A stretch of DNA of 64,000 nt from Candidatus Latescibacterota bacterium (GCA_965218365.1 OZ244619.1:3715231-3779230); one strand, 5' to 3'; numbered from the stretch's first letter, positions 3,293 to 44,873 are shown. The notes: generated by a model not told the origin, from the letters alone. Numbers and translations are program-made.

Positions 3293-3554
3293 GGGTCCCG
3301 CCTCAACCCCAGTTCGAATTCCCAGCCTGCCTCCTCCGCGATGGGCACCGGTGAGCCCTACGGAGGAATGCGTCCTGAATGGTCTCAGCGAGGACCGGGT
3401 TGGACCCGATACGGGCTCACAGGCAACCCAACCCTACTGCGAGCCCTGTCAAACGGCCTGCCAACGATCCTCAGCGAGCTTCCCCTGCCCCTTGCGTGTG
3501 TGTTCGGCGCCTTGACAAGAGGGCCGAAAAGGGGCCTCATTTTTCCTATACTTG
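3293..3554 (+). mobile_element. IS91/ISCR-family element remnant, copy 1 (last ~10 codons of tnp plus ~230-bp conserved 3' end)
   Basis: Begins with ..PPQPQFEF-like codons and ends ...ggggcctcatttttcctatactt. It is about 90% identical to the 12 other copies. Confidence 0.8.
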
Positions 3555-3630
3555 ATCTTCATTGCTTTCCTTTGTCCCTAAGCCGGGGGCACGGACGTGT
3601 TAAATGAAGTTTGCCCAAAATGCTGGTAGT

Positions 3631-4380
3631 TCACGATGCCGCTTTGCGCGCAAGAGCAATCAGCCGCTTTGAGCTACGCCCATACGGACTGCCTTCCAAA
3701 TCCCCATATAGTTGCGTATTACTAAACCCAACTTGCAAGAGGCGATCCTTCAGTTCCTGGCCCGAGTACAGCGTGTGGTGAAACTTGAACGATTTTACCT
3801 GCTCATCCCGGATCAGGAGCCACTCGTTGCGAATCCTCGTCCAATCATCGAAGATCTCGCGACGTTGAACGAGCAATGTCCCGTCGGGACGCACCTCCGA
3901 GGAGGTCGCGGCGAATACTTTGGCCAACCACTCTTTACCTATTATATCCATTACGAGGGCTCCCCCAGGTTTGAGACTCTCGTAAATATTGCTGAGCACT
4001 AGCAGGTCCTCGTCCTTGTCATCGAAATAGCCGAAGGACGTAAACATGTTGAGCACCAAGTCGTACGAGGAGGGCCGCACAAAACGACGCATGTCTTCCT
4101 GCACAAACTCAACGTCTAATTTCCGCTCGTTTGCTCGCGTCCTAGCTTTTTGCAGTAGAAACGCTGTAGCATCAACGCCCGTTACGGAAAATCCTCGCTC
4201 GGCCAAGACCGTGGCATGTCGGCCGGGGCCGCAGCACAGGTCGAGGATATTTGTCCCGCTGAACTCCACCAGCGAAAGAATTTTGTCGACTTGATCTTCC
4301 GCAGATTCAAATCTCTCCTTTGGGAACATATAGGGATACATTTCCGTCCAGAAGTCTTCGTTTTCAAACCATTCGGACAT
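3631..4380 (-). CDS. Class I SAM-dependent methyltransferase
   Basis: 249 aa with motif I ILDLCCGPGRHATVLAERGFSVTGVD. Local GC is lower than the chromosomal background. Confidence 0.7.
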   Translation of the reverse strand: MSEWFENEDFWTEMYPYMFPKERFESAEDQVDKILSLVEFSGTNILDLCCGPGRHATVLAERGFSVTGVDATAFLLQKARTRANERKLDVEFVQEDMRRFVRPSSYDLVLNMFTSFGYFDDKDEDLLVLSNIYESLKPGGALVMDIIGKEWLAKVFAATSSEVRPDGTLLVQRREIFDDWTRIRNEWLLIRDEQVKSFKFHHTLYSGQELKDRLLQVGFSNTQLYGDLEGSPYGRSSKRLIALARKAAS

Positions 4381-4733
4381 AGAACCTCCAGCGTCATGTT
4401 TAGAGGAATGTCAGGACTCAATAGGTAAATTTCACTTAACGGCTTGTACCCGAATGGGTTCGGATAATCGCCCTTATTTGAAACTCATAGAAGGACAAAA
4501 ACTGGGCCAAATCAACCCATTTATTCCTCACCCTGCCAATAGTCGTCGATTCCGCCTTCTGACACGCGAGTCCACCTTGTAAGACCCTCTTTGTTTGCAT
4601 GGAAAGATGGGTGAACGAAAACCTTGTCGCTATCAGGATAGTAGCAGGTGTCAAAGTCAGGATGCTTCTTCGGCGAGTTGCCATTTCAGGGTACTGAGCC
4701 TACGAACATATTCGGAACTTAGTCTGAGGAAAT

Positions 4734-4975
4734 CCGCCTGACCTCCTCCGCGATGGGCACCGGTGAGCCCTACGGAGGAATGCGTCCTGAATGGTCTCAG
4801 CGAGGACCGGGTTTTGGACCCGATACGGGCTCACAGGCAACCCAACCCTACTGCGAGTCCTGTCAAACGACCTGCAAACGATCCTCAGCGAGCTTCCCCT
4901 GCCCCTTGCGTGGGTTCGGCGCCTTGACAAGAGGGCCGAAAAGGGGCCTCATTTTTCCTATACTTTGCCGCCGGG
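4734..4975 (+). mobile_element. IS91/ISCR-family element remnant, copy 2 (non-coding 3' end only)
   Basis: Shares ccgcctgacctcctccgcgatgggcaccggtgagccc...tcctatactt with the other copies. It carries one small internal indel (gggttttgg). Confidence 0.8.
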
Positions 4976-5386
4976 TTCCTGGGATCCTACGCGTTTCTGT
5001 CCCTCGGCATCGTTACCGCCGTGGAGGGCGCCAGGTACACGGCCGCGCGCCTGAGGGGTCTGGTGACGGCCGCTTCGTTTGTGTCGTGCGTGATCGTATA
5101 TCTGACGACGGCAGGATATTTCGTGTACGGCCTGCTGGGGAGTCTTCCAACCGGACCGGCATTGATGGCATACACGGTTCTTTCCGGCCTGGTCTTTCTG
5201 CTGATCGAACTTTTCCTGTTTGAAAAGTTCGTGGAAATTTGGCTGCTGTTCGCGGCGGACTTCGAAGATCCGGCGCGCCGGTCGATAGATAGTCAATACG
5301 AAAGGACGAACCCATGCCGGATACGAATGGGTCATCAGGGAAGTTACAACGGCCGAAGAGACGTTACCCGGACACGGTGCTGGTGA
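4976..5386 (+). pseudogene. Membrane-protein C-terminal fragment, N-terminally cut by element copy 2
   Basis: The hydrophobic open frame (..YLTTAGYFVYGLLGSL..LVFLLIELFLF..) starts immediately after the element end with no start codon or RBS. It overlaps the next gene by about 70 nt. Confidence 0.3.
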
Positions 5387-9557: not shown

Positions 9558-10109
9558 CGGCTCCATCTTCTGCGCTACCACGGGGTCTTGGCCCCTCGTG
9601 CCCGAGATCATCACCGCATCGTACCGGCGCAGCCGCTAGCCGAGTCGCCGGCGGCCAACCGCGCTTCGAGCGCTGGGCCCTGCGGCCATCGCCTGGGGTG
9701 GGCGGCCCTGCTCGCCCGCGTGTTTGCCACCGACCTCAGCGCCTGCCCGGCCGGTGGCGGTCGCCTGAGGATCATCGCTGCTCTGACCGATCCAGCCTCG
9801 ATCCGGACCAATCTGGAGGGCGTAGGGCTGCCGGCGGTGCCCCCGCCGAGGGTCCCGCCTCAACCCCAGTTCGAATTCGCCGCCTGACCTCCTCCGCGAT
9901 GGGCACCGGTGAGCCCTACGGAGGAATGCGTCCTGAATGGTCTCAGCGAGGACCGGGTTGGACCCGATACGGGCTCACAGGCAACCCAACCCTACTGCGA
10001 GCCCTGTCAAACGACCTGCAAACGATCCTCAGCGATCTTCCCCTGCCCCTTGCGTGTGTTCGGCGCCTTGACAAGAGGGCCGAAAAGGGGCCTCATTTTT
10101 CCTATACTT
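9558..10109 (+). mobile_element. IS91/ISCR-family element remnant, copy 3 (C-terminal ~100 codons of Y2 transposase plus 3' end)
   Basis: Encodes ..[92 protein letters not shown]. This is the Y2-transposase C-terminus with a Cys-x2-Gly-Gly zinc knuckle. The conserved 230-bp tail follows. Confidence 0.8.
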
Positions 10110-10412
10110 TAACTCAACCGCCCTCATTCTAACCAACGCTGATGTGGGTTTCACCTTGGCTTCGGTTTAGTATTACAACGACGGTTGGTGTGATAGGATG
10201 ACTGGGTAGTTGGGGAAGACTTGGGCAAGTGAGGCCGGGAAGTGGATGCGGGGGCTTTCGAGCACGGTGATAGATACTGGCTGCAGTATCAGCGCAAGCG
10301 TTTGTTCGCTCCGCTTGACCCGAAGGGGACTCCTGACTGGTCAGTCCCGATATGCTCCCCGCACTCAACTCCAGGGCCAGAAGTTACACACACCCTAATA
10401 TGGTAATATGAT

Positions 10413-11156
10413 ATGAACAAGGCCATTTGCTTCATTTTCGCGGCTATCGCTTTCCTCGCAACAGGGTGTGCAGCACCTATGACCAAGGTGGTGGCCACGC
10501 GCCAAAGTGGGACCATTGACCAAAATCTATTCAAAGAGGGCGATGAAGTTTGGGTTACCTATCAGGACAAACTAGATACCGTGACAATAAAGAAAGCTTT
10601 TGTCCTCGATACAGACGACGACTCGGTTAAGTTGGATGTAAGGAAGAAAGGGCATTTTGACATCGAATATCGACAGATACACACACTCAGTCGTCCAGTG
10701 AAGGATGTACGGTTTGTGAGTTTATCATCGGGCGCATTTACTACGGTACTTTTGGATCCTCCAATAGTCGGCGCGGGGCTTTCTTTAAGAAACGCGCCTT
10801 ATACAAACTACGGTATTGAGGCGAATCTCTCGCTAGGAGGAGGGAGAGATTCGAACGAGTTCTCGAAATGGCTAAGTGCGACTCTAAATTGGTACGGATA
10901 TACCTTCGTGCCCCGCACGTATATCTTCCTCGGATTTGGATATATATGGCCTAAGCCGACCGAAAGGTTTAGGGAAATTTATTATGATGATGGCGAGCGT
11001 GTCAGTACTGGCCTTATGCGTTTTGGATTTGGAGTGACGAATCCCATTTCAAAGCGGTTCAATATACGCGTAGAGGCTGAATTTAGTGTCCTAGTAGGAT
11101 TAAAGGTCTACCTTGAGCGTAGACTTCATACTGGATCCCAGAAAATTGGTGGATAG
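10413..11156 (+). CDS. Hypothetical lipoprotein (signal peptide plus lipobox LATGC), low-GC
   Basis: 247-aa ORF. Codon usage is atypical and GC about 45% against a background of about 65%. The Y/F/G-rich C-terminal half suggests a beta-rich outer-membrane-type fold. Confidence 0.45.
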   Translation: MNKAICFIFAAIAFLATGCAAPMTKVVATRQSGTIDQNLFKEGDEVWVTYQDKLDTVTIKKAFVLDTDDDSVKLDVRKKGHFDIEYRQIHTLSRPVKDVRFVSLSSGAFTTVLLDPPIVGAGLSLRNAPYTNYGIEANLSLGGGRDSNEFSKWLSATLNWYGYTFVPRTYIFLGFGYIWPKPTERFREIYYDDGERVSTGLMRFGFGVTNPISKRFNIRVEAEFSVLVGLKVYLERRLHTGSQKIGG

Positions 11157-11161
11157 ATAAT

Positions 11162-11824
11162 ATGGATGTCGGAATCAACAAAAATCACCACATCAGCCCT
11201 ACTAATGCAGGGTTGGTTTTGCTCGTATTCTCTCTTCTCTCATTTGTCGATCATGTCCATGCGGATGGGACACGCGACAAACTACTCGCCAAGAAGTTTG
11301 CTCCCATACTGGTACTGACGGAGCATCCAACAATATCCGGCCGTATAGTGCTTAATCCTGAACCGGTTGAAATCATGGGCGCTGACTCCCTGTCCAATGT
11401 CAGGGTGGTCTCCGCGAATCTATTGGGAGGTTACTTCCTGGAAGCGTCCTATTTAGCCGACTGGAACCCACCTTTGAATTTTCCCGGGGTCGATGCTTCG
11501 CGAAATCAATTTGCATTTCTTACTACTCAACGAAGGTTCTATGACGGTATACGGCCAGGAGAAAATTCTGAGTCGGTTAACATGGTGGTGAAGCCACTAT
11601 TTTTTGACTACCCTGGAGACGATAGGGCATCTTGGAACCCTGCGTATCTTGGGACTGGTGGGGATGATGCTCATGCGGGATGGCGGTTCAGGAACACTGT
11701 GTACGCCCGCGTGTTTGAACGTCCCGATTCCTCGGACGGTAAAGGTTCCGTTTTTATCACCTATTTTTCTTTCTATCCTTTTAACGATTCCTCAGCGCCT
11801 GCCCGGCCTGTGGCGGTCGCCTGA
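11162..11824 (+). CDS. Hypothetical secreted protein, 3' end replaced by element copy 4
   Basis: Signal-peptide-like N-terminus. The last 11 codons (SAPARPVAVA) are read from inside the IS remnant, so the native C-terminus is lost. Confidence 0.4.
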   Translation: MDVGINKNHHISPTNAGLVLLVFSLLSFVDHVHADGTRDKLLAKKFAPILVLTEHPTISGRIVLNPEPVEIMGADSLSNVRVVSANLLGGYFLEASYLADWNPPLNFPGVDASRNQFAFLTTQRRFYDGIRPGENSESVNMVVKPLFFDYPGDDRASWNPAYLGTGGDDAHAGWRFRNTVYARVFERPDSSDGKGSVFITYFSFYPFNDSSAPARPVAVA

Positions 11825-12165
11825 GGATCATCGCTGCTCTGACCGATCCAGCCTCGATGCGGACCTATCTGGAGGGCGTAGGGCTGCCGGCGGTGCCCCC
11901 CCCGAGGGTCCCGCCTCAACCCCAGTTCGAGTTCGCCGCCTGACCTCCTCCGCGATGGGCACCGGTGAGCCCTGCGGAGGCATGCGTCCTGAATGGTCTC
12001 AGCGAGGACCGGGTTGGACCCGATACGGGCTCACAGGCAACCCAACCCTACTGCGAGCCCTGTCAAACGACCTGCAAACGATCCTCAGCGAGCTTGCCCT
12101 GCCCCTTGCGTGTGTTCGGCGCCTTGACAAGAGGGCCGAAAAGGGGCCTCATTTTTCCTATACTT
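11790..12165 (+). mobile_element. IS91/ISCR-family element remnant, copy 4 (last ~45 codons of tnp plus 3' end)
   Basis: Starts within ..LSACPACGGRLRIIAALTDP.. and ends with the conserved tail ...tcctatactt. Confidence 0.8.
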
Positions 12166-12366
12166 TGCAGTTCATTGATGATACGGAGAGCATGATAGCC
12201 GGATTCGAGAATGTGGATGCCATGGACAGACGGGCGTTTGCGGTTTTTGTTTTACTGAGGAATAGACGATAGTGGTGGATTTCAGATTATCAGGTCAGAG
12301 AGATGGTTAGTCGAAGAGGCTGGACACGTCAACAATCGCTGCGGATTAGGGCGAAGGAGAGATTGA

Positions 12367-13557: not shown

Positions 13558-14557
13558 TACAGCGTCAAGCAAGTTTTGCCATTTGTAAGCCTGCCCTGCC
13601 CTTGGACTGTTGCTTTCGGGGGCTTTTTCGAAACCCTATTCCACCTCCTTTCCGAGGTCTGGGTGGAACGCCCCCTCCACCCCTGGATTCCCGCCTGCGC
13701 GGGGATGACGGATGGTTGTGCGAAGGTCTCCCATGCGAGAATGGCGAAACGAAAGCCAGGCAAGGAAAAGCTGGCTCGGTTAATGGCACAGGTTCGGGCG
13801 TCCACCCGCCGCGAACCGGAAAAGGAGCCTCTTTACCAGATCCTCGCCGAACATTTGGAAACCTTCCTCCAGCAAGCCCACACGTCCGAGCACCGCCTGC
13901 CGCTCCACGTCGAGAAGGAGATGCGCGCCTACCTTCGGGGAACGCGCCGGTCAGCGTTTGCGACGCGCCCTGCAAGATGCGGCCACCGGGGTACGTACGG
14001 CGCCCTTGTGCTTCGCTTCGCGCGGCTTTTCGCTGCATGCAGCGACGCGGATCGCGGGCTCGGACCGGCGAGGGCTCGAACGCTTATGCCGCTACTTGGC
14101 CCGACCGGCCCTGGCCGCCGGGCGCCTCCTCGATCGCCTGGGGTGGGCGGCCCTGCTCGCCCGCGTGTTTACCACCGACCTCAGCGCCTGCCCGGCCTGT
14201 GGCGGTCGCCAGCGGATCATCGCCGCCCTGACCGATCCAGCCTCGATCCGACGCTACCTGGTGGGCGTAGGGCTGCCGCTGAAAGCCCCGCCGAGGGCTC
14301 CACCACAGCTCCAGTTCGAATGCGCCCTCTGACCTTCCATTCTGGATCGCTCCCGGTGACGGCCGCAGGGCCGGGTGCGTCCTCAAGGGCCTCATCGAGT
14401 ACCGCGTTGGACCCGATGCGGGCCCACAGGCTACCCAACCCTACTGCGAGCCCTGCCCAACGACCTGCAAACGATCATCAGCGAGCTTGCCCGGCCTCTT
14501 GCGTGGGTTCAGCGCATTGACAGAGGGCCAAAAAAGGTGCCTCATTTACCTATACTT
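13558..14557 (+). mobile_element. Internally deleted (~1 kb) IS91/ISCR-family element, copy 5; retains the putative left end, the tnp N-terminus and the 3' end (subfamily B tail)
   Basis: N-terminus MAKRKPGKEKLARL...LPLHVEKEMRAYLRCGTLAGGFARLRC is the IS91 zinc-binding N-terminal domain. The sequence then jumps to ..GERAGQRLRRALQDAATGVRTAPLCFASRGF..ERLCRYLARPALAAGRL, and again to ..[28 protein letters not shown]... A small hairpin (cccgcctgcgcggg) lies upstream of the N-terminus. The left boundary is approximate. Confidence 0.7.
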
Positions 14558-14702
14558 CCGAGCGGTTCGGCGTCAGAGAGCGGCAGGTGTTCGCGATTCT
14601 GGCGCAGGGGCCGGGGGGAAGGGGGGCAGCGTAGGTCGCAAGGTTTCCTACTAGACGGCCGTCCAATTATTCTTCAATTCGGAGAGGTTGGGAGGTTTCA
14701 GC

Positions 14703-15005: not shown

Positions 15006-15080
15006 TGGCGCGCGCGCCGGGAGAGATCAGCTTCAAACGCGCAGCATTCCGATTTAACGTTGCGATAGAGGGGAAACAGA

Positions 15081-30292: not shown

Positions 30293-30337
30293 GATCGACC
30301 TCCACTTTCTTGATCTACCATGAAATAGTTGACACTC

Positions 30338-32434: not shown

Positions 32435-32445
32435 TTCGATCTAGT

Positions 32446-33198: not shown

Positions 33199-33202
33199 CT
33201 TC

Positions 33203-34636: not shown

Positions 34637-34765
34637 TGCCGGATCGACGAGGTCTCGCAGTGGAGGCGTTTTTCACGGCCTCGAGGGGCCGGGGTTTTTT
34701 TACTTGCTTTCGGCAGCCGCAATCGCTAATTCATGGGGAGACAACAATTTCGAGGGAGGTCCTTG

Positions 34766-35296
34766 ATGAGACTGCTATCGATTCTGGGCGTGGTCCTGCT
34801 GTTGCACACCGCAGAGGCTGCTTACGACGGGAATGTCCCGAATGGATCGCCGGTCCCGGCGAATTCCGATTGCCACGTTGCCGCCAAGCCGGCCGGCGCC
34901 AATGGCGCCTCATGTAAGATCAAGGGACCTACACCGAGAGAAAAACCGGTATGCAGCTCGCCCCACGGCGCCCATTTCAACGGCCCCTTGGGAACCGATG
35001 TTCTTGCCACCAGCCCCGGTGTCGTCGAGCGGGTGGGGACCAACAATCATCTCGGCAACTACGTGGTCATCAACCACAGCTCCAATGTGAAGACCTCCTA
35101 CGGCCACCTGGAGTCTTCCAGCGTGAGGCGGGGCCAGCGGGTGATGCTTGGGGATGTCATCGGCACGATCGGCAAGTCTGGCAGCACCACCGGGCCCGGA
35201 TTGCATTACATGATTACCCAGGGCAGGCGGTCTCTAAACCCGATTCAGTACATCAGAGCGGAACGGCGCGGCCCGCAAAGGCGCGGCGCCCGCTGA
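34766..35296 (+). CDS. Secreted M23 (LytM-type) metallopeptidase
   Basis: Signal peptide MRLLSILGVVLLLHTAEA with RBS gagggagg. The LytM core is ..GTDVLATSPGVVERVG..GNYVVINHSSNVKTSYGHL....GQRV..GDVIGTIGKSGSTTGPGLHYMI. Confidence 0.7.
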   Translation: MRLLSILGVVLLLHTAEAAYDGNVPNGSPVPANSDCHVAAKPAGANGASCKIKGPTPREKPVCSSPHGAHFNGPLGTDVLATSPGVVERVGTNNHLGNYVVINHSSNVKTSYGHLESSSVRRGQRVMLGDVIGTIGKSGSTTGPGLHYMITQGRRSLNPIQYIRAERRGPQRRGAR

Positions 35297-35484
35297 CGCT
35301 GCGAGCGGTCCGCCGACCTACCCGTACAGCTACGCAACTCTGCAGCATCGGACCGGGGATTCGCCTCGTTTCCCCGGTCCGATGCGAAATCACTCTCGCT
35401 CAGACAGGTCGATGTTCTCGTCCGGCGCGGTCGGTCGCTCTCGTCGACTGCCAATCGCGCTTTGATCGCGAGGACCGTCCGACC

Positions 35485-37064: not shown

Positions 37065-37374
37065 TGAGCTGCTTTCGGTGAAATGGCAAAGTAATGGATG
37101 CGAGATTGTTATCGCCGCCGAACTGGGGCAATTCTAAGCTGATCGCACCACCCGAGCAATGCGTGCGCGTTTGGCCCGAACGACGCGGAAGGGAGCGACG
37201 CGGCCGGGCGTTTCGGTCGTTCGACCGATTTCGGCGCCGAGCCTGTGCCCCTTGAGAATTCTGCGCACCGAGACGAGCTTTCGGCGGCCCTCCCATGTCC
37301 GAGCTCAGCTACCGTAATCTGATCACCCTGTCCGTCCCCGCCATCCTCTCCGTCGCCATGGAGCTGAAAGATGC

Positions 37375-38198
37375 GGCCACCGGGGTGCGTACGGCGCCTT
37401 TGTGCTTCGCTTCGAAGGGCTTTTCTCTGCATGCGGCGACGCGGATCGCAGGCCCTGACCGGCGGCGGCTCGAACGCTTATGCCGCTACGTGGCCCGACC
37501 GGCCCTGGCCGCCGGGCGCCTGCGCCTCCTCGATTCGGCACACCTTTCCTTCGCGCTCAAAACACCGTGGTCGGATGGGACCAGCCATCTCCTCCTCTCG
37601 CCGATGGAATTACTGGAAAAACTGGCGGTTCTGGTCCCCCCTCCCCGGCTCCATCTCCTGCGCTACCACGGGGTCCTGGCCCCACGGGCCCGAGACCGCC
37701 ACCGCATCGTGCCGGCGCAGCCGCTAGCCGAGTCGCCGGCGGCCAACCGCGCTTCGAGCGCTCCGCCCTGCGGCCATCGCCTGGGGTGGGCGGCCGTGCT
37801 CGCCCGCGTGTTTGCCACCGACCTCAGTGCCTGCCCGGCCGGTGGCGGTCGCCTGCGGATCATCGCCGCCCTGACCGATCCAGCCTCGATCCGACGCTAC
37901 CTGGTGGGCGTGGAGCTGCCGCCGAAAGCCCCGCCGAGGGCTCCGCCACAGCCCCAGTTCGAGTTCTCCGTCTGACCTCCTCCGCGATGGGCGCCGGTGA
38001 GCCCTTACGGAGAAATGCGTCCTGAATGGTCTCAGCGAGGACCGGGTTGGACCCGATCCGGGCCCACAGGCCACCCAACCCTACTGCGAGCCCTGTCAAA
38101 CGACCTGCAAACGATCCTCAGCGATCTTGCCCTGCCCCTTGCGTGTGTTCGGCGCCTTGACAAGAGGGCCGAAAAGGTGCCTCATTTTTCCTATACTT
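37375..38198 (+). mobile_element. IS91/ISCR-family element remnant, copy 11 (C-terminal ~190 codons of tnp plus 3' end); left bracket of the HEPN cassette
   Basis: Nearly identical to copy 9. Confidence 0.8.
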
Positions 38199-38395
38199 CT
38201 CTACCGTCGTCGCTTAATCCGAGACGTGATGTACAAGCACGACGCCTCGTGGAACCACCATACGACCTTCGATCCGAGGCGAGGGGCGCTCGACCAGTAT
38301 CGTCGTTAGGCAATCACGTTACCCCCAGAAAATCTACATTAGATAAACTTCACCAAGCAAAGCACCTGAGAGCGTATAGCGCTGGAGCGAGGCAC

Positions 38396-38821
38396 ATGAG
38401 TCTTTTGAAGCAACAGAACGGCGACGATTACCCTGAAGCTGCAAACAAGCATTTACAGGATGGGTACGTACTCCTGAAGGGCAACCGCTTCGATGGAACT
38501 GCTTATCTGGCCGGGTACGTGGCCGAGTGCGCAATAAAGACGCTGATTCAAGTAGAAACCGGATCAGGTTTTCGCTCTCACGAGCTTGTTGAATTGCAAA
38601 ATACCTTTGGTACACTTGCCGCACAGTTCGGTGCTCGTACTAGCCGGTTCTACAATCCATTGGCAGCGCAGCTAAAAAACTCCGAGGTTATCAAATGGAA
38701 CCCGGAAATGCGCTACCGCGGTCCTGCGATCACCGAAAACAGTGCCCGCGAGATGGTTCGGGAGGCAAACGAGATATATGGATTGGTAATCGGCGAACTC
38801 ATTCTGGACGGAGTGATCTGA
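38396..38821 (+). CDS. HEPN-domain protein (pfam05168-like; no Rx4-6H motif seen)
   Basis: MSLLKQQNGDDYPEAANKHLQDGYVLLKGNRFDGTAYLAGYVAECAIKTLI..GSGFRSHELVELQNTF...EMRYRG..ENSAREMVREANEIYG matches the HEPN pattern LL..G.Y..A...AYYA.E.ALKALL......SH.L..L...F....R..Y...A.E....A.E. The RBS is ggagcgagg. The stop overlaps the next start. Confidence 0.5.
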   Translation: MSLLKQQNGDDYPEAANKHLQDGYVLLKGNRFDGTAYLAGYVAECAIKTLIQVETGSGFRSHELVELQNTFGTLAAQFGARTSRFYNPLAAQLKNSEVIKWNPEMRYRGPAITENSAREMVREANEIYGLVIGELILDGVI

Positions 38822-40146
38822 TGCAACACTTGGACGATGCCTACCGACAGGCAGAAAAAATTCTAGCGGGATTTCTAGAAGACAAGTCAGTAAACTGGCG
38901 CATCCTTTTGATTAAAGATGTCTTTGCCAAGCTACGTATCGTCCTTTGGTGTCCCAAAAAAAGTAGGGAATCCGGCCGCGAAGAAATCAATCAAAGCCTT
39001 CGTCAGGTCTCATCGCCCTACTGGTCAGAAAACGTGTTGTTCGGGCAGAAAAAGGATGAACCGCCCAATGGCCCTTGGCAAGATGCTGCTTGGCGTAAAG
39101 CACAAGATGTCGAGGGAGTGAATGGTCTTCGGGTCTTGGAGCGACACCGAGCCAAGACGGGTTGGTTTGAATCCCCCGACGAGCCGCCATGGACCCTCAA
39201 AAAAAACACTGGAGTTCCTATTTGCCTCTTCTATTCGTTTAAAGGGGGCGTAGGTCGGTCGATGGCCCTCGCGGCGACTGCGTTGCATCTGGCTACTGCC
39301 GGTGATCGAGTTGTCGTGCTAGATGCGGATCTTGATGCACCCGGAGTAGGTTCCTTACTCGCGGGATACGACAGCGCGACTGCCCCGTGGGGCATTGTGG
39401 ACTATCTACTCGAGTACCCCATCTTGGCCGAAAATGGAGGACTGGATATCGGAGATTACTATCACCTCTGTCCGTCCGAACTCGTGCCTGGGCAAGGAGA
39501 AATTCTCGTATTTCCGGTGGGGGTTTTCGATGATCGGTATCTTAACAAGCTCGCACGGCTCGACTACGGAGTTCCACCGGATCATCCAGAACATCCCTTC
39601 GTTTCACTTCTGAAACAGATTGGCCGAGACCTCGCACCAGATTGGATTCTGGTTGATGCCCGTGCTGGACTGGGCGATGTGTCGGGGTTCTTAACTGGAG
39701 GTTTGTGTCACCTTCATGTGTTGTTCGGCACACTGGCAGACGCGAGTTGGCAGGGTATGAAGCAGATCGTAGATCGGCTCGGGGGCACTCGGGTACGGGA
39801 AGGCAAGCCCCAAGCTGAGTGCCTAGTAGCAGCGGCGATGATACCGCGATCTCAAGAGGCCCAGTATCAAGAATCCGTGGAATGGTTCACGGATCAAGCA
39901 CGCGATGTGTTCTCCAATTACTATTACGCAGAAGCAGGACACCAAGACAAATTTTGGACGATGGACGACATGGAGAACACCGATGCCCCGCATGTCCCTA
40001 TCGTACTGCCCTACGACGAACGCCTTGCTCTTTTCCGAAATCTGAGCGAAGTCAATTCCATCCTGCTTACTCCGAACGGGCCTTATGGAGAGCTTGCTGA
40101 GCATCTGAAAGCTGGCTCCCGTCGATTGAAGGAGACAACTAAATGA
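38821..40146 (+). CDS. ParA/MinD-like deviant-Walker-A ATPase with unique ~170-aa N-terminal domain (Walker A KGGVGRS, with Arg in place of the P-loop Lys)
   Basis: ICLFYSFKGGVGRSMALAATALHLATAGDRVVVLDADLDAPG is the KGGxG[KR]S P-loop plus DxD. The Walker B candidate is WILVDARAGLGD. The TGATG overlap with the HEPN gene and the ATGA overlap with the next gene indicate translational coupling. Confidence 0.5.
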   Translation: MQHLDDAYRQAEKILAGFLEDKSVNWRILLIKDVFAKLRIVLWCPKKSRESGREEINQSLRQVSSPYWSENVLFGQKKDEPPNGPWQDAAWRKAQDVEGVNGLRVLERHRAKTGWFESPDEPPWTLKKNTGVPICLFYSFKGGVGRSMALAATALHLATAGDRVVVLDADLDAPGVGSLLAGYDSATAPWGIVDYLLEYPILAENGGLDIGDYYHLCPSELVPGQGEILVFPVGVFDDRYLNKLARLDYGVPPDHPEHPFVSLLKQIGRDLAPDWILVDARAGLGDVSGFLTGGLCHLHVLFGTLADASWQGMKQIVDRLGGTRVREGKPQAECLVAAAMIPRSQEAQYQESVEWFTDQARDVFSNYYYAEAGHQDKFWTMDDMENTDAPHVPIVLPYDERLALFRNLSEVNSILLTPNGPYGELAEHLKAGSRRLKETTK

Positions 40147-41651
40147 ACAACACATCGAGACTCACTAAAGAGCGGTGTACTGACCTGCGTGGTCAGCTCA
40201 GCGATCTTGGCTATGGGCAGGCTGAATCGGAAACGTCGGAACTCTTCTCACACAGACTTTATCTCGTCCCGGAACATCTACGAGCACTTGATCCGCGTGT
40301 CGTACTGGTCGTCGGTCCCCGCGGTGCAGGGAAGAGCGCGTTATTCAGAGCCATCTTCTTAGGGATGGATCTCGGCGATGCGATCATTCGTCGCGTACCA
40401 CAAATCGCAAGCACCGCTATGCAGTTTGACTCTACGACTTGGAAGGCCGCCTTTCCTGAAGGCACTAGTTTTCCCGACACTCAAGCCCTTGAGCGACACA
40501 TCAATTCGGACGAGCAGGCGAAGCGCATTTGGTATCTGATGCTCGTCCGGTGTCTGACGTGCGAGTTCGACGACGCCCAAAAAGCAAGCTTGCGGCCCCT
40601 GACCGAGCCAAGAGCTGCAGAAATCGACAAAATACTCGCTGCTGCTAACTCACTGGAAGCCAATCCTACAGCGGTTCTGGACGCACTGGAAGAGCGACTC
40701 GAACGCGAAGGACGCTGGGTTTTTGTCGGCTACGATGAGCTTGATACGTTAGGAGGTTTCAATTGGACATTGATGGCACGAATGGTGCGCGGGCTTGTCG
40801 CTTTCTGGTCTGACTACAGTAGACGTTGGCGACGGATTCGGGCAAAGATATTCCTCCGCTCCGATCTTTTTCGCCGACACGCAGGCATGGGTACCGCAGA
40901 CTTTGCAAAGCTTGCTGCCAATCGCGCCATACTTGGCTGGTCTGACGCAGCAATACTCGGAATGCTGGTGAAGCGCATCGCCAACACATCTGACGAATTA
41001 GAGTCCTACTGTCAAGGGGCAAGGGTTACGTTTGAAAAGGATGATACGCTCGGGTTGGTTCCCAATATACAAGCGCCTGATGTTGCCCACCCATTGCTGG
41101 AGCGGATGGTAGGCGAGTACATGGGCTCCGACAAGAAGAAGGGGTTTGTCCGCAATTGGATACTTGCCCATCTACGAGATGGAAACGGCGATCTCTGCCC
41201 GCGTACGCTCGTGCGACTGGTAGAGATCGCCGCCGCGAATAACTCGGCGAACCGAACTCTGCGCCCGCCGCGGCTGATCCATCCCACAGCACTACGCCAA
41301 GCCCTCAATGACGTGTCAAGCGACCATGTAACCCAAGGAATTAGCAGCGAATGGCCATGGTTGGAGGGGGTTAAAAGGCGACTGAAACAACAGCAGCTTG
41401 TGCCGTGGCAGAGTAGTGAGATTGTGAATCTGCTCAACTCGGACTGGGATGAAACTTGGGGACTACCAAGTAGCACTCCCGTGCGACCGCCCGAGGAAAG
41501 GCCGGCGGATCTCGTTAATTATCTCGTCGAGCTTGGTATTTTCCGGAGACGCTCCGATGGGCGGGTTGATGTGCCTGACCTGTATCTGTTTGGCCTAGAA
41601 CTCCGTCGCAAAGGCGGCGTTAAGGTAGGTGCTCGTCGCCAAAGAAGCTGA
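40143..41651 (+). CDS. AAA+/STAND-like P-loop NTPase (502 aa)
   Basis: ..HRLYLVPEHLRALDPRVVLVVGPRGAGKSALF (Walker A GPRGAGKS) and RWVFVGYDELDTL (Walker B hhhhDE). The sensor-2-like segment is PRTLVRLVEIAAANN. The C-terminus is unrecognised. Confidence 0.45.
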   Translation: MNNTSRLTKERCTDLRGQLSDLGYGQAESETSELFSHRLYLVPEHLRALDPRVVLVVGPRGAGKSALFRAIFLGMDLGDAIIRRVPQIASTAMQFDSTTWKAAFPEGTSFPDTQALERHINSDEQAKRIWYLMLVRCLTCEFDDAQKASLRPLTEPRAAEIDKILAAANSLEANPTAVLDALEERLEREGRWVFVGYDELDTLGGFNWTLMARMVRGLVAFWSDYSRRWRRIRAKIFLRSDLFRRHAGMGTADFAKLAANRAILGWSDAAILGMLVKRIANTSDELESYCQGARVTFEKDDTLGLVPNIQAPDVAHPLLERMVGEYMGSDKKKGFVRNWILAHLRDGNGDLCPRTLVRLVEIAAANNSANRTLRPPRLIHPTALRQALNDVSSDHVTQGISSEWPWLEGVKRRLKQQQLVPWQSSEIVNLLNSDWDETWGLPSSTPVRPPEERPADLVNYLVELGIFRRRSDGRVDVPDLYLFGLELRRKGGVKVGARRQRS

Positions 41652-41822
41652 GGATTGGCCTGCTTTTCATTTGAGAGTAAGATGATCGAATACTAAAGGT
41701 CTGATTCGGCAGCTTCATCGGTGCTTTGCTGCGCTACTTAGTCGCAATACAGATCCAGAGTCGACGAGTGGAACAACCTCGTCGGTGTCGCCGAACACGC
41801 CGCAACTGAAACGCGCCTGCCC

Positions 41823-42057
41823 TCTCCGTCTGACCTCCTCCGCGATGGGCGCCGGTGAGCCCTTACGGAGAAATGCGTCCTGAATGGTCTCAGCGAGGAC
41901 CGGGTTGGACCCGGTACGGGCCCACAGGCCACCCAACCCTACTGCGAGCCCTGTCAAACGACCTGCAAACGATCCTCAGCGAGCTTGCCCTGCCCCTTGT
42001 GTGTGTTCGGCGCCTTGACAAGAGGGCCGAAAAGGTGCCTCATTTTTCCTATACTTT
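41823..42057 (+). mobile_element. IS91/ISCR-family element remnant, copy 12 (tail only); right bracket of the HEPN cassette
   Basis: tctccgtctgacctcctccgcgatgggcgccggtgagccc...tcctatactt. Confidence 0.8.
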
Positions 42058-42058
42058 C

Positions 42059-42606
42059 CCGATTTCAAGCTGATCCCCGCCGCGGTGGAACCGGAGCAAC
42101 CGGACGACCGTGGCCGCGGGCTCACCCATGCCCACGGGCCGGCGATGATCAACCGCGGCGACCGGACCCTGATGTGGTACGGGATGTTCTTCGGCAGCGA
42201 CGTGCGCTGCGCCAGCTGGCACCGGGACCGGCTTGGGTGTTTCGAGACCTTCGACGAGATGATCTTCGGCGAGGGGGAGTTCTTTCCGATCACGCGGCCG
42301 CGGCCGCACTTTATCAGCTGCCCTATGTGCGCTGGGGACGGTCCGCTGAAACTGTTCGCCAACGCCGATCTGAACGAGCACTGTCCGCTGACGGTGGAGG
42401 TGCTGGATGAGGGGTTCCATCCGCTGCCGGGGTATTCCGGGGATGCCTATGTGCCGCTGGCGGAGGATGGCTTCCGGTTGCCGGTGCGCTGGAAGGAAAG
42501 GGATGAGCTGCCGGCGGGGGAGACGTTGCGCCTGCAGGTGAACTACGGCGATGGGCTGCGGCCGGAGGATGCCAAGGTGTACGCGCTCTACGTGGCGAAG
42601 GAGTAG
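42059..42606 (+). pseudogene. C-terminal ~170-aa fragment of a beta-propeller GH-like paralog, N-terminally cut by element copy 12
   Basis: ..HFISCPMCAGDGPLKLFANADLNEHCPLTVEVLDEGFHPLPGYSGD...LRPEDAKVYALYV aligns with the C-terminus of the 16880..18394 protein ([13 protein letters not shown]...[13 protein letters not shown]). Confidence 0.5.
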
Positions 42607-42660
42607 GTCGATCCGACGAAAATCATGGATCCAATTAACCGAGAGCGAGGAGATTGAGAC

Positions 42661-44292
42661 GTGAATGCAGACCATATGAAGGCGCGCTGGCGGCAACGCC
42701 GGATCATTTACAACAACGACGGCGACGATGTAATCGAAGCACGCTCCGGAGTGGAACATGAGTATGACGTCTCCGCAGCCACGACGGTACGCGCCACCGG
42801 AGATCTGGTACAAGATTTTCTCGATGCCCGCAGCACGCCTCTGATCGGCACCCAGGTGGACAGCAACTGGTTCGCCAGCTGCATGGCGGGCCTCACCTTT
42901 TCACACCATACGAAGTTGGGCGGATTCTACGGCAAGGGGATCCCGCTGGAGCTGGTGGAGAAATACGGGCGCGACAGTTTGCAGGTACAGCTGGATTTCA
43001 GCCACGAGCACGGCATGGAAGCAGCTTGGTGCCTGCGCATGAACGATGTCCACGACGCGTTCCCCATGGGTTCGCGTCCATGGACCTACGGTCTGGCCAA
43101 GTTCAAGCGAGACCATCCGCAATGCTTGATGGGCAAGGAGGGCGATTGGGAGAAATACGGCCAGCACGACCCGCGGTCTGGATGGACGCGATTGGATTTC
43201 GCTGTTCCAGAGGCGCGCGAGCACATCTTCGGCATCATTCAGGAGGTGGCGCAGAACTACGACGTGGACTGTATCGGCATGGAGTTCTTCAAGTACTGGC
43301 CCTTCTTCCGTGAGTCGCTGGAGGGCAATCCCGTCGAACCGGAGCATCTGGAGTTGATGAACGATTTTTTGCGGCGCATCCGGCACATGGCGGACGAGCA
43401 GGCCAACCGCCGCGGCCGCCCACTGCTGCTGGCGGCGCATACCCCGTTCAGCCTCGCCGATTCGATCCACGTGGGGGGCGACCTGGAAACGTGGCTGAAG
43501 GAAGGATTGATCGATCAGCTCATGCCCGGCGGCAACTACGAATCGGTTTTCTGCAGTTCCTACAGCGACATCATCGCACTGGGACACAAGTACGAGGTTC
43601 CGGTCTATCCCTGCGTGTCCTGGGGCTTCTGGGATCGCTGGGCCTTTCTCGGACTTACCGATGGCAAATACAGACAGTTCGGGTCGTGGTTAGAGACCCT
43701 CTACGGAGCTCAGCCCGAGCGCGTCGGCAGACCGTCGTTTATTCTGGTGTTCAACAGCTGGGAGGGCACAATGGCCGCGTGGCGGGGAGCCGCCTCGAAT
43801 CTGTTCAATTCCGGCGCCGATGGGCTCTACCTCTTCAATCCCCAGTTCGGGGAGCCGCAATGGTGGCGCGAGATCGGCGAACCGGCAACCATGGCCGGCA
43901 AAGACAAGCTCTACGGCATCGAGCGTTTTACAGGCCCCGACAGCTTTACCGAAACTCCGGAGGTTACCCTCCCCGTGTCCGCGGGTTTTCAGGTGGGCGA
44001 GGAGGTCGGATCCGCCGGTGCGCGCAGCATCGATTTCAGCCTGCATCTGTGGGATTGGGCTCCCGGCGACGACCTCTCGGTGAAACTCAACGGCGCGGCG
44101 GTCGAGGGGCTAAATCCGGTCGATCCGGACCGCAACCCCAAGGAAGGTCAGTGGCTGCGGGGCACGCTCGATGCCAGACAGATCCGTCGCGGTGAGAATC
44201 AGCTGGACGTGGCGGTTAAGAACCGCGGCGAGTCCGCTTCGTCTGCGGTCGTGCTTGACGCAGCGCAGCTGCGGGTTCGTGCGAAGGAGTAG
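42661..44292 (+). CDS. Conserved hypothetical protein, paralog of 19662..21290
   Basis: See 19662..21290. Full length and intact. Confidence 0.45.
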   Translation: MNADHMKARWRQRRIIYNNDGDDVIEARSGVEHEYDVSAATTVRATGDLVQDFLDARSTPLIGTQVDSNWFASCMAGLTFSHHTKLGGFYGKGIPLELVEKYGRDSLQVQLDFSHEHGMEAAWCLRMNDVHDAFPMGSRPWTYGLAKFKRDHPQCLMGKEGDWEKYGQHDPRSGWTRLDFAVPEAREHIFGIIQEVAQNYDVDCIGMEFFKYWPFFRESLEGNPVEPEHLELMNDFLRRIRHMADEQANRRGRPLLLAAHTPFSLADSIHVGGDLETWLKEGLIDQLMPGGNYESVFCSSYSDIIALGHKYEVPVYPCVSWGFWDRWAFLGLTDGKYRQFGSWLETLYGAQPERVGRPSFILVFNSWEGTMAAWRGAASNLFNSGADGLYLFNPQFGEPQWWREIGEPATMAGKDKLYGIERFTGPDSFTETPEVTLPVSAGFQVGEEVGSAGARSIDFSLHLWDWAPGDDLSVKLNGAAVEGLNPVDPDRNPKEGQWLRGTLDARQIRRGENQLDVAVKNRGESASSAVVLDAAQLRVRAKE

Positions 44293-44293
44293 C

Positions 44294-44440
44294 CAACAAT
44301 GGCCGAACCCACAGTACCCCGCCTGCCGGTAGTCCTGGACATTGGCAACGAACGCCAGCTGTTCGTCGACGACTATTTGATCGACGGACTGGAGAATATC
44401 TCGCGCTTCGTCCACCAGCCGGTGTCGCGCGCAAGATGGT
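44294..44440 (+). pseudogene. N-terminal fragment of a beta-propeller GH-like paralog (internally deleted)
   Basis: MAEPTVPRLPVVLDIGNERQLFVDDYLIDGLENISRFVHQPVSRAR, followed directly by ..KMVTFASYDFETWTQAS.. (compare ..[21 protein letters not shown] in paralog 1). A premature stop follows. Confidence 0.4.
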
Positions 44441-44452
44441 GACCTTCGCCTC

Positions 44453-44646
44453 CTACGATTTCGAGACCTGGACCCAGGCCTCCTGTCTCAGTTTCCGCTG
44501 CGATGAGGTGTCGCCACGGCGCATGCAGCTCTGCGGGGTGCCCGACTTGCCGTCGCGGCTGTGCCCCAACTGAGCCAGCTCACAGTGGCTGCCCTCGAAG
44601 TAGGTCGAGGTCAGGTCGTAGAGCACCAGCGTGTGCTCGCTGAGGT
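44453..44646 (-). pseudogene. IS4-superfamily (IS1634-like) transposase N-terminal fragment
   Basis: ..HTLVLYDLTSTYFEGSHCELAQLGHSRDGKSGTPQ.. corresponds to the conserved YDxTSxYFEG...G[HY]S[KR]D.RPD.[KP]Q N-terminal motif of IS1634/IS4-type DDE transposases. It abuts the 5' end of element copy 13. Confidence 0.4.
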
Positions 44647-44873
44647 GCTCCTCCGCGATGGGCGCCGGTGAGCCCTTACGGAGAAATGCGTCCTGAATGG
44701 TCTCAGCGAGGACCGGGTTGGACCCGATACGGGCCCACAGGCCACCAAACCTTACTGCGAGCCCTGTCAAACGACCTGCAAACGATCCTCAGCGAGCTTG
44801 CCCTGCCCCTTGTGTGTGTTCGGCGCCTTGACAAGAGGGCCGAAAAGGGGCCTCATTTTTCCTATACTTTGAC
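44647..44873 (+). mobile_element. IS91/ISCR-family element remnant, copy 13 (tail only)
   Basis: ctcctccgcgatgggcgccggtgagccc...tcctatactt. Confidence 0.8.

Follow-up and report, generated by a model that had tools for sequence, protein, structure and literature searches.

How does a bacterial chromosome come to carry thirteen pieces of a single transposable element that all lie on one strand and all retain the same end? The question is raised by a ~42 kb stretch of the chromosome of an uncultured soil bacterium of Candidatus Latescibacterota, which lies within the 64,000 nt of DNA analysed here (OZ244619.1:3715231-3779230; hereafter the window).

Thirteen co-oriented repeats in the window

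A scan of the window for the 23 nt terminus of the repeat gave 12 matches with at most 3 mismatches, against 0 in 100 shuffles, and the thirteenth copy (t5), whose terminus carries a 1 nt deletion, was recovered by repeat search and BLAST. All thirteen copies, here called tails, lie on the + strand, in agreement with the original prediction. The shared end, ...CCTATACTT, is the 3′ (oriIS) end of one element; it had been described as identical in every copy, but it is exact in five, has the variant GGTGCC in six and takes other forms in t5 and t6. The terminus is followed by CTT and a pyrimidine-biased base, not by the GAAC/CAAG motif suggested earlier; just 2 of the 13 copies have canonical CTTG, which reads CAAG on the opposite strand. 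The variable lengths previously noted were confirmed, with the range corrected from ~170 bp to ~1.05 kb to 167–1,071 bp, and the starts of copies 5 and 8 were moved from 13558 to 13798 and from ~26150 to 26135, respectively. Element coordinates (el) refer to an intact 1,703 bp copy on a metagenome contig (L056:9955-11657) that is 95–98% identical to t7-t13.

3292-3553, + strand: t1, el 1442-1703; non-coding 3′ region and last ~13 codons
4733-4965, + strand: t2, el 1472-1703
9558-10109, + strand: t3, el 1151-1703; encodes transposase residues ~369-459
11790-12165, + strand: t4, el 1327-1703
13798-14557, + strand: t5, three pieces, el 77-213, 836-1026 and 1281-1703
16538-16737, + strand: t6, el ~1521-1703
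22564-22942, + strand: t7, el 1326-1703
26135-27205, + strand: t8, el 632-1703; longest tail, encodes transposase residues 195-477
28490-29314, + strand: t9, el 878-1703
33032-33198, + strand: t10, el 1537-1703; shortest tail, 167 bp
37364-38198, + strand: t11, el 869-1703
41823-42056, + strand: t12, el 1470-1703
44648-44869, + strand: t13, el 1482-1703; end of the array

Sensitive BLASTN and TBLASTN searches of the window with the intact element and its protein as queries revealed no − strand fragment, no fragment without the 3′ end and no intact transposase gene, bearing out the claim that every copy keeps its 3′ end, loses its 5′ end and points in one direction. The tails form subfamilies that sort by position, with t1-t4 (subfamily B, in which t1 is 98% identical to t2-t4), t5-t6 (subfamily C) and t7-t13 as contiguous blocks. 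The gene adjoining t10 lacks ~16 N-terminal codons, t12 adjoins a truncated gene of which the C-terminal ~190 codons remain, and the transposase part of t8 is in frame with a 3′-truncated metallophosphoesterase gene (fused ORF 25336-26982).

Identity of the element and its intact copies

The thirteen repeats are remnants of the oriIS end of a single rolling-circle element of the ISCR type (IS91 family) from Candidatus Latescibacterota. In its intact form (~1.70 kb) the element consists of a short left (terIS) end, a gene for a 477 aa zinc-finger/HUH transposase and a 223 bp non-coding oriIS region that terminates in ...TTGAC..GCCTCATTTTTCCTATA-CTT. Intact relatives carry both the Zn_Tnp_IS91 and Y2_Tnp Pfam domains. 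The fused t8 ORF matches Y2_Tnp (E=5e-20) as well as Metallophos, and t5, once a near-full-length copy, retains a fragment of the zinc-binding N-terminus (residues 11-75), as the family assignment and the description of copy 5 had held. The best NCBIfam profile, ISCR_clade_Ia, was matched over nearly its full length (positions 24-484 of 509), a likeness to ISCR1, ISCR2 and ISCR28, at a score of 351 bits that is far under the clade cut-off of 925 and sets the element apart from them. Its 108 bits against the IS91 equivalog model (transpos_IS91, cut-off 125) and the lack of an orf121-like gene here distinguish it from IS91.

The suggestion that the family survives only as remnants, with no intact transposase, held within the window and failed beyond it. 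Apart from the L056 copy, the genome of a sister strain holds two intact elements (476 and 479 aa) and three tails, all co-oriented, at L055, the two intact elements being ~85% relatives of the window element; a further intact transposase (P0005, 476 aa) lies on a 5,907,301 bp contig equal in size to the contig with the window's proteins. For the subfamily to which the window copies belong, the genome of the window yielded no intact transposase.

Gain and loss of units between strains

Comparison of three strains, namely the window, its 99.5%-identical sister and the 97%-identical OZ242318.1, showed that the array changes rapidly. Four indels, each of one intervening segment (seg) plus one tail, separate the window from its sister, three of them being units found in the window.

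10110-12165, no strand: seg3 + t4, 2,056 bp; in the window, absent from the sister strain
27206-29314, no strand: seg8 + t9, 2,109 bp; in the window and L060, absent from the sister strain
38199-42056, no strand: seg11 + t12, 3,858 bp; absent from the sister strain

Segment seg3 has a low GC content (0.51) and ends in a truncated gene, and seg11 carries candidate defence genes (PDC-M28B/C). Both alleles of the seg8 + t9 unit are present in the sister's own sample, from which L060, a 5x contig, derives. The fourth indel is an extra unit in the sister strain 3′ of t13, of 956 bp plus a 168 bp tail (t14). Where units are absent, the sister's remaining tails are mosaics of two window tails: a single mosaic tail replaces seg3 + t4, the tail at the seg11 + t12 site resembles t11 up to a single switch point and t12 on the 3′ side of it, and the t8/t9 and t3/t4 hybrids are patchworks. 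Because the remaining tails are mosaics, the comparison points to units coming and going between adjacent tails by homologous recombination. The sister strain also has t1, and t2 with the same 5′ end. The genes of seg4-seg6 are syntenic with OZ242318.1, where no tails lie between them, so that at least t5 and t6 are simple insertions into the backbone and not imported units.

A single example of direct mobilisation was found, in a genome other than that of the window. In CBDCXV010000010.1 a 1,354 bp segment, made up of a 588 bp tail and the 766 bp of flank upstream of it (with a VOC gene and a GNAT gene), has a co-oriented, 100%-identical duplicate 1.8 kb downstream, whose right edge falls exactly at CCTATACTT; the VOC ORF is intact in the donor copy and lacks its first 22 codons in the new one. 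This duplicate suggests that a tail without a transposase can still move upstream DNA. Break-induced copying, primed in a tail that was already present, is an alternative account, since a tail adjoining the same flank occurs in a related genome too.

These observations bear on an alternative that we consider unlikely, though worth weighing, in which the array is a cassette-like platform: sequential oriIS sites would bound mobilisable units in an integron-like gene-shuffling device driven in trans by an ISCR transposase. In its equally tentative details, replication from oriIS might run leftwards, stop at the previous oriIS and free a circle of segment plus tail, and that circle might conceivably re-enter the array beside or inside another tail. 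Each of the four polymorphisms between strains consists of precisely one segment and one tail; the cargo is accessory, mixed in its GC content and in part made up of candidate defence genes; and the t13/t14 switch falls 20 nt or less from the end of the tail, at or beside the nick site, where homologous recombination is an improbable cause (about 0.13). OZ242214.1, moreover, has U-tail joined to F2a, as predicted for the junction of a circle derived from the CBDCXV order (a tail followed by F2a-F2b-U-tail), and there is a two-oriIS precedent in ISCR28, where a remnant and a second oriIS 'sandwich' captured genes (Yuan 2024, as cited in PMC12772301). However, three of the four polymorphisms have internal switches or patchworks in their tails, the mark of homologous recombination or gene conversion and not of nick-site cleavage; the single clear-cut case of mobilisation ended within a gene, at 1,354 nt from oriIS, and not at the previous oriIS, which lies 4.5 kb beyond that point; and part of the array is ancestral syntenic backbone.

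Truncation, orientation and conservation

In two tails the loss of 5′ sequence demonstrably postdates insertion and came about through ordinary microhomology deletions. The t4 ortholog in OZ242318.1 is cut to ~66–100 bp by a deletion that joins an FG-GAP gene to the tail across a 9 bp microhomology (CGACCTGCA), and the sister strain lacks window positions 13625-14068, a 444 bp deletion with an 8 bp microhomology that removes the 5′ part of t5 and so leaves the sister's t5 further truncated. Also absent from OZ242318.1 are a 1,402 bp block spanning the whole t5 region (13651-15052) and a 311 bp block containing t6 (16447-16757) that is flanked by an imperfect 12 bp direct repeat, and in the window 197 bp of flank just upstream of t2 was deleted between 12 bp direct repeats. 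No common tetranucleotide, terIS-like sequence or termination motif was found at the 5′ ends of the tails. Clustering of these ends is marginal, with 8 pairs no more than 1 nt apart where 3.7 would be expected (P about 0.05). The t7 end differs by at most 1 nt from the ends of t4 and of L030, which is in another genome, as does the t10 end from those of L055:66-233 and of t14 in the sister strain. With no motif and marginal clustering, truncation at insertion is at most a plausible origin for any copy in the window, and the LINE-like truncation first proposed is retained in part, alongside the two tails trimmed later.

Across the phylum, 9 metagenome-assembled genomes of Latescibacterota have ~45 sites with the terminus pattern, and these sites form clusters of 2–9 on one strand. 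A census of 45 loci in ~10 genomes recorded 74 tails, 4 full copies and 20 other fragments; all 98 fragments were co-oriented with their neighbours, with 0 local conflicts. Fragments without the 3′ end are frequent in other genomes (20/~98, and 2/3 in the orthologous region of OZ242318.1), so that retention of oriIS is not universal and the 13/13 in the window needs a further cause.

It is doubtful that the array is a graveyard of independent full-length insertions, strand-biased and coupled to replication as in IS200/IS605, that later suffered random 5′ deletion with no local copying. Such a history fits t5, formerly near full length and decaying by internal and 5′ deletions, the frequency of microhomology deletions in the lineage, the position of t5 and t6 in intergenic gaps of syntenic backbone, and CBDCXV010000010.1, where element orientation and GC skew switch together (0.35–0.57 Mb against 1.46–1.6 Mb). 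Random deletion should nevertheless leave 5′ or internal fragments, which make up 0/13 in the window against ~70% of unselected bystander fragments elsewhere, and junctions cut genes whose missing parts do not lie across the tail. Nor was support found for orientation being tied to replication direction, as had been proposed: copies occur in both orientations genome-wide, the sister's two arrays are oppositely oriented relative to local GC skew (+0.03 to +0.05 against −0.02), and orientations in OZ242214.1 and OZ252098.1 do not match two equal replichores. The other option originally offered, serial local events, is the better fit, given the subfamilies in contiguous blocks, co-orientation at 45 loci and four unit indels.

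A further reading, which we consider improbable, is that the tails are kept by selection, with the oriIS region serving the host, for instance as an outward promoter, terminator or insulator. The 232 bp oriIS region of ISCR1 has two outward promoters (POUT) that raise downstream gene expression (PMC6218425), a + strand gene comes next after ~9/13 tails, and the last 28 nt of the element are near-invariant across the phylum. Yet sigma-70-like promoters were found in 0/13 tails and one weak terminator-like match in t13, 9/13 is near the proportion of + strand genes in the window as a whole, tails are easily lost between strains, several adjoin truncated, probably dead genes, and a conserved terminus is expected anyway of a transposase recognition site. 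Collapsed or chimeric repeats, an artefact named at the outset, are effectively excluded: the sequences come from long-read metagenome assemblies with repeats 95–99% alike, but flanks and 5′ end are distinct for every tail, and the same tails and junctions recur in the independent 44x assembly of the 99.5%-identical strain, in the 5x contig and, for t4, in the 97%-identical OZ242318.1.

Proposed history and comparison with known systems

The reading we prefer, with a probability of roughly 60%, is that rolling-circle entry followed by tail-tail recombination and microhomology deletion built the array. Copies would enter by rolling-circle transposition from oriIS, driven in trans by an intact transposase elsewhere in the genome; since transposition would start at oriIS, every product would carry that end. 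The end point would vary, giving a full copy at terIS, a short tail when inside the element, and a tail with captured upstream DNA when beyond it. Co-oriented tails would then recombine, adding, removing and reshuffling segment-plus-tail units and patch-converting tails, while microhomology deletions would wear away the 5′ sides and interiors of copies. What the repeat is and to which family it belongs, its co-orientation at each locus, the turnover of units between strains, the mosaicism of tails and their 5′ shortening through deletion are directly shown. We infer that the truncated copies were made by one-ended transposition, that tails are still mobilised in trans, and that this is the reason for the survival of oriIS ends alone in the window.

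One-ended transposition has precedents. In IS91 the last 82 bp and the adjacent 5′-CTTG suffice as oriIS and termination often fails (PMC13181058); IS801 yields right-end miniatures of 229, 360 and 679 nt (PMC3189936), and its right-end fragments transpose in Pseudomonas syringae, where upstream DNA can move too (PMC3189936, PMC13181058). Like IS91, IS801 and IS1294, the present element appears to require the oriIS end alone, with leaky termination and without target duplication, and a specific tetranucleotide adjoins oriIS (5′-CTTG in IS91, CTT plus a pyrimidine-biased base here). IS801 miniatures, however, begin at a tetranucleotide resembling the left end, which the window tails lack, and most P. 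syringae fragments are ascribed to rearrangement and do not form co-oriented arrays. With ISCR elements the window shares two dissimilar ends, an oriIS region 3′ of the gene (~223 bp against 232 bp in ISCR1; PMC6218425), variable DNA 3′ of oriIS, co-oriented intact and partial copies bracketing gene segments (ISCR2-tet(X), PMC7722449; ISCR28, PMC12772301), and homologous recombination invoked beside rolling-circle events. It differs in its host, an uncultured phylum, in its chromosomal site without an integron, in its metabolic and candidate defence cargo instead of resistance genes, in having 13–14 sequential oriIS in ~42 kb against two or three, and in its consistent co-orientation at all loci sampled in the phylum.

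More distant systems offer partial parallels. Helitrons also have a HUH/Rep-type transposase, asymmetric ends with one essential initiating end, and imprecise termination that gives truncated copies and captured gene fragments (PMC4778049), but they are eukaryotic Rep-helicase fusions that initiate at the 5′ (left) end and read through at the 3′ end, and no sequence relationship extends beyond the HUH fold class. In LINEs and group II introns, too, the 3′ end is constant and the 5′ end varies, through synthesis from one fixed end; there, unlike here, reverse transcription is involved, and at least part of the truncation here is post-insertion deletion. Integron cassette arrays resemble the window in their co-oriented recombination sites between gene units, accessory cargo and gain or loss of units between close strains, whereas the window array has neither integrase nor attC, its segments often start or end within genes, and unit exchange bears the marks of homologous recombination between 170–830 bp repeats.

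The locus thus holds an element of a known kind whose array is unusually dense and changes fast, and it does not represent a new mechanism. To our knowledge, ISCR mobility has never been demonstrated experimentally, and the array is a natural test bed for it.

The co-oriented array in the window

The window carries thirteen tails (t1-t13, 3292-44869, + strand), each a 5′-truncated remnant of one IS91/ISCR-like element that ends at the terminus of the initiating end, oriIS. The 23-nt terminus gave 12 matches on the + strand with at most three mismatches, compared with 0 in shuffles of the window, and a thirteenth copy with a 1-nt deletion in the terminus was recovered by repeat finding and self-BLAST. 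In element coordinates the end point is constant and the start variable for every window copy, and the DNA beyond the terminus is unrelated among copies save for the common ...CCTATACTT. Translation showed that the longer copies encode C-terminal pieces of an IS91-type transposase and that copy 5 encodes an N-terminal zinc-finger piece, t5 being alignable to residues 11-75 of P0009, the transposase of the intact reference element. Sensitive BLASTN and TBLASTN searches of the window with that reference found no − strand fragment, no 3′-less fragment and no intact gene. Retention of oriIS in 13/13 window copies is real, and decay alone is insufficient to explain it. The tails fall by position into three sequence groups (t1-4, t5-6 and t7-13), a pattern consistent with copying or conversion, or both, on a local scale.

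Several features of the DNA between and around the tails were recorded alongside the array. Inter-tail segments 10110-11789, 29315-33031 and 38199-41822 have a lower G+C content (0.51-0.55) than their surroundings (0.60-0.65), which suggests a foreign origin for some units (one inter-tail segment plus one tail). PADLOC identified the candidate defence system PDC-M28 in two adjoining genes at 38695-41651 (B, E=4e-56; C, E=8e-68), with no A component evident; this B/C unit (38199-42056) is missing as a whole from a 99.5% identical sister strain. An ORF of 548 aa (25336-26982) reads in frame from a 3′-truncated calcineurin-like phosphoesterase (metallophosphoesterase) gene into the last 283 residues of the transposase, and gene callers report the fusion as a single protein in related assemblies (548 aa in L060, a contig from the sister's sample). 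Two old paralogous pairs, each with ~72% DNA identity, were found: GHL10-like genes at 19596-21290 and 42658-44292, and a 554-aa gene at 16880-18544 (−) with a truncated fragment at 42057-42606 (+), the latter matching the C-terminal ~190 codons of the 554-aa gene and lying directly after t12. An uncharacterised gene family (motif ...YFYPYNHWWNRHEGDW...) is cut by a tail 5′ junction at window 11162-11824 and in the Latescibacterota loci L031/L038; the genes are truncated in two different genomes at differing points, and either this is coincidence or the gene travels with tails. Just outside the array, an IS3-family transposase fragment (integrase core C-terminus, 46771-47040) is 96% identical to L056:4093-4349 and thus represents a second, unrelated IS remnant. 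No tRNA or integrase was found at the array borders, and the whole shows a strain-variable island organised by IS tails rather than by integrases or tRNA sites.

A divergent ISCR-like transposase

The t8 ORF matched Y2_Tnp (PF04986) in Pfam with 72.6 bits (E=5e-20; cut-off 20.9), and both the PF14319 zinc-binding domain and the PF04986 core are present in P0009 and in P0004, another intact transposase; the original prediction had rightly recognised a real IS91/ISCR remnant array. A protein search returned full-length transposases of 475-480 aa with Zn_Tnp_IS91 and Y2_Tnp, among them P0009, with which the longest fragment in the window shares 92% identity. The HUH motif of P0004 reads NLNPHVHVLMLDG (H-V-H), and its LCRYLARP motif holds one Tyr; we take these residues to be catalytic by analogy with IS91/ISCR. 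The single Tyr of P0004 resembles ISCR rather than IS91. The best NCBIfam match for P0009 was ISCR clade Ia (NF052416; 351 bits, profile positions 24-484 of 509), far below the curated cut-off of 925 bits, while the IS91 equivalog NF033538 gave 108.5 bits for P0009 and 100.6 bits for P0004, below its curated cut-off of 125. These profile scores place the element as ISCR-like and outside ISCR clade Ia; with that clade nearest and both scores under their cut-offs, the IS91 family gains in it a new ISCR-like member that is divergent.

Element ends and junctions

The intact 1,703-bp element of L056 (9955-11657) is 95-98% identical to t7-t13, ~90-92% to t1-t4 and ~86% to t5-t6, and has 223 bp between the end of the gene and the terminus. 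Full copies in L056 and in L055, the second array of the sister strain, have a common left end, CGGACGCG.../CGAATGCG..., and a right end, ...CCTATACTT, which are unrelated to one another. Two functionally different ends, an oriIS 3′ of the gene and the absence of terminal inverted repeats match the IS91-family end structure, and >70 copies share the conserved 3′ terminus. Comparison of the flanks of the two L055 full copies (left, ...ATACAA and ...CAGACT; right, after CTT, CGAAAC and CAAATG) found no target-site duplication. CTT is invariant next to the terminus at 64/64 distinct junctions, where the following base is C (23), T (24), G (9) or A (8), that is, a pyrimidine in 47/64. By analogy, CTT-N may be a target tetranucleotide, or CTT could belong to the element; in IS91 an essential 5′-CTTG adjoins oriIS (PMC13181058). 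Past the terminus of one full copy in L055, and 70 bp downstream of it, a second CCTATACTT was noted (L055:20130-20159) with just ~20 nt of resemblance upstream (GTGTTTATTCTTCCTATACTT), perhaps an origin remnant of very small size, perhaps the end of another IS91-family element.

The 5′ junctions were resolved to the base for all window tails except t5 and t8, and their first 4 nt are AGGG, TCCG, CGGC, CCTC, TGAC, ACCT, CGGC, TCAG, TGAA, TCTC and CTCC. Aligned in pairs, these junctions share no motif that would mark termination. Some 5′ ends coincide across subfamilies, at element positions 1326/1326/1327 and 1536/1536/1537, a coincidence only marginally above chance overall in a hot-spot simulation. 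At the other end, RNAalifold on the last 110 nt of 16 diverse tails found no conserved hairpin (−5 kcal/mol, no covariation), and conservation there is of primary sequence. Scanned for promoters and terminators, the array gave nothing consistent within tails, and Rfam had 0 matches in the window; none of these features, nor a conserved hairpin, explains why oriIS is retained.

Intact copies and distribution in the phylum

A terminus-pattern scan of one genome per species found ~45 true sites, all in nine Candidatus Latescibacterota MAGs; terminus matches in other phyla were rejected as element copies because upstream homology was absent. The sister strain (ENA ERZ25067264, 5.73-Mb contig, 99.5% identical) has the same array at L001, L059 and L058. 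Its second array (L055), ~3.85 Mb from the first in contig coordinates, contains two intact copies (476 and 479 aa; ~85% identical to window tails) and three tails, with 5/5 co-oriented. The window's proteins are carried by a 5,907,301-bp contig, and a contig of 5,907,301 bp is also recorded for the intact 476-aa transposase P0005. The claim that no intact transposase is present thus stands for the window and fails beyond it, where L055 (two) and L056 hold intact copies.

By contig coordinates, OZ242318.1 has a further same-strand cluster, of nine copies in 64 kb; CBDCXV010000010.1 has clusters of five, three and two copies, and those on other contigs are smaller. Across 45 loci, a census counted 74 tails, 4 full copies and 20 3′-less fragments, the last common in genomes other than the window's. 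Fragment orientation was uniform within each of these loci, and either orientation is possible among different loci of one genome. A recurring structure in four loci of other Latescibacterota genomes (L011, L046, L050 and L041) consists of a 5′ element fragment, a 1-3-kb insert and then a tail, the fragment ending at X and the tail starting at Y <= X with an overlap of 3-378 bp, which is the shape expected of an element-fragment circle integrated by homologous recombination.

The proposal that orientation follows the replication strand is not supported. GC skew agreed with orientation in ~11 clusters and disagreed in 7 across the 8-kb loci, a weak signal from loci too noisy to use, leaving the window and L001 versus L055 as the only usable contrast. 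Skew in element orientation is positive in the window and L001 and negative in L055, which argues against a simple replication link. Under strand-specific, fork-coupled insertion of the IS200/IS605 kind, element orientation would track the replichore or GC skew genome-wide; the two arrays of the sister strain are discordant in skew versus orientation.

Differences between strains

We found four unit indels between the window and its sister strain, and 4/4 correspond to exactly one segment plus one tail.

Units differing between the two strains (window coordinates; window tails on the + strand)
10110-12165, one segment and one tail: present in the window only
27206-29314, one segment and one tail: present in the window and in a 5x contig from the sister's own sample
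38199-42056, one segment and one tail: present in the window only
After t13, 1,124 bp, one segment and one tail: present in the sister strain only

The sister's remaining tails are hybrids, with one switch in t11/t12 and patchworks in t8/t9 and t3/t4, mosaics that mark homologous recombination, with gene conversion, between tails of like orientation. In t13/t14 alone (t14 being the sister's extra tail) does the switch fall within the last 20 nt. Distinguishing unit gain from loss by SNP patterns was abandoned, as a single crossover yields an identical hybrid in both cases. The 5x contig (L060, ENA ERZ25067264 ctg667275_5x, 10,365 bp, low coverage) is 99.83% identical to window 25021-35385; since it derives from the same sample as the sister and carries a unit absent from it, both array alleles co-exist in one community.

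In OZ242318.1 the orthologous region (L057, 97% identical) shares the gene order of the window (sulfatase, PHP, MR, MT451, 504-aa gene, lactonase, BNR), with t5 and t6 absent between these backbone genes, and this synteny implies that part of the array is ancestral chromosome that received copies. We did not accept that OZ242318.1 shows a clean 'empty site' of either t5 or t6, because some flanking DNA is missing along with the tails; with a 12-bp direct repeat at the edges of one missing block, these losses may be secondary deletions. The t4 ortholog in L057 is cut to ~66-100 bp by a deletion that fuses codon ~75 of an FG-GAP gene to the tail, with a shared 9-mer, CGACCTGCA, at the joint, and the 5′ part of t5 was removed in the sister strain by a 444-bp deletion with 8-bp microhomology. 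These two deletions document shortening from the 5′ side after insertion. Further microhomology deletions occur in the flanks, and such events are frequent in the lineage. Differences from L001/L058 unrelated to the tails lie at window 4663-4676, 12323-12337 and 45601-45622. The window has a 197-bp deletion between 12-bp direct repeats relative to L001/L058, and the sister alone has a 576-bp HNH-nuclease gene fragment and a 2.46-kb block (metallophosphoesterase, NUDIX, GNAT).

Origin of the array and possible activity of tails

The history that best accounts for the array has three parts: rolling-circle transposition would seed tails in the region, after which the tails would recombine with each other and deletion would erode the copies.

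Whether tails might themselves act as origins is addressed by one locus on CBDCXV010000010.1 (L036), where two co-oriented, 100% identical copies of a 1,354-bp segment lie 1.8 kb apart. The duplicate consists of 766 bp of upstream flank and a 588-bp tail; both copies end on the right at the terminus. On the left the segment starts within a VOC-family gene, which is complete at one copy and short of 22 codons at the other. Its structure fits the prediction for one-ended rolling-circle transposition from a tail without a transposase. Recombination is a possible alternative source, since a tail adjoins the same right flank in a related genome as well. No example of one-ended mobilisation was found inside the window. 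At the origin junction, two other Latescibacterota loci, L049 and L023, differ by the presence or absence of 246 bp beside oriIS, bounded by CTTT and CTTC, a difference that hints at transposase action.

A more ambitious reading, which we consider unlikely, is that the chromosomal oriIS-tail arrays of Latescibacterota are a working gene-shuffling platform, in which transposase-less tails of 170-1,000 bp would serve as portable origins fired in trans by a distant intact ISCR-type transposase, circles would be released and re-enter, and strains would exchange units. Equally doubtful, as parts of the same joint reading, are the re-entry of 'segment + tail' circles into arrays via transposase or homology, and an exchange between co-existing strains in which accessory genes, candidate defence genes among them, pass as units. 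If true, rolling-circle chemistry would underlie a system akin to an integron, and DNA movement by ISCR-type elements would have its first demonstration in nature.

Comparison with known systems and significance

ISCR elements have been blamed for the assembly and spread of antibiotic-resistance gene clusters. Together with IS91/IS801 they are the closest known systems to the Latescibacterota element. ISCR elements have an oriIS region of ~230 bp (PMC6218425) with variable DNA downstream, and co-oriented intact and partial copies bracket genes (PMC6218425, PMC7722449); a 'sandwich' of two oriIS is described for ISCR28 (PMC12772301). One-ended transposition and right-end miniatures are described for IS91/IS801 (PMC3189936, PMC13181058), but IS801-type miniatures have their 5′ end at a left-end- or target-like tetranucleotide, unlike the tails here. 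An integron comprises a tyrosine-recombinase integrase and attC sites, whereas the window repeats are IS tails; no integrase domain was found among the 30 window ORFs, a subset, scanned with Pfam. BLASTN of the longest tail against the PLSDB plasmid database gave no match and so provides no link to known resistance plasmids. New here are the phylum of the host, the divergence of the transposase, how many origins follow one another, and a co-orientation that is strictly local.

As of 2026, ISCR transposition is still without experimental demonstration (PMC6218425, PMC13393415). The Latescibacterota genomes offer test material in the form of an intact ISCR-like transposase and dozens of natural origin-end deletion variants, down to ~50-170 bp, as well as a 100% identical duplicate resembling a fresh one-ended event and unit presence/absence differences within one sample. 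They provide a concrete, testable system for the questions of minimal oriIS and termination, and for the share of "ISCR gene capture" that is due to homologous recombination between co-oriented remnants. For annotation, the lesson is that IS tails can structure a strain-variable island in an uncultured phylum.
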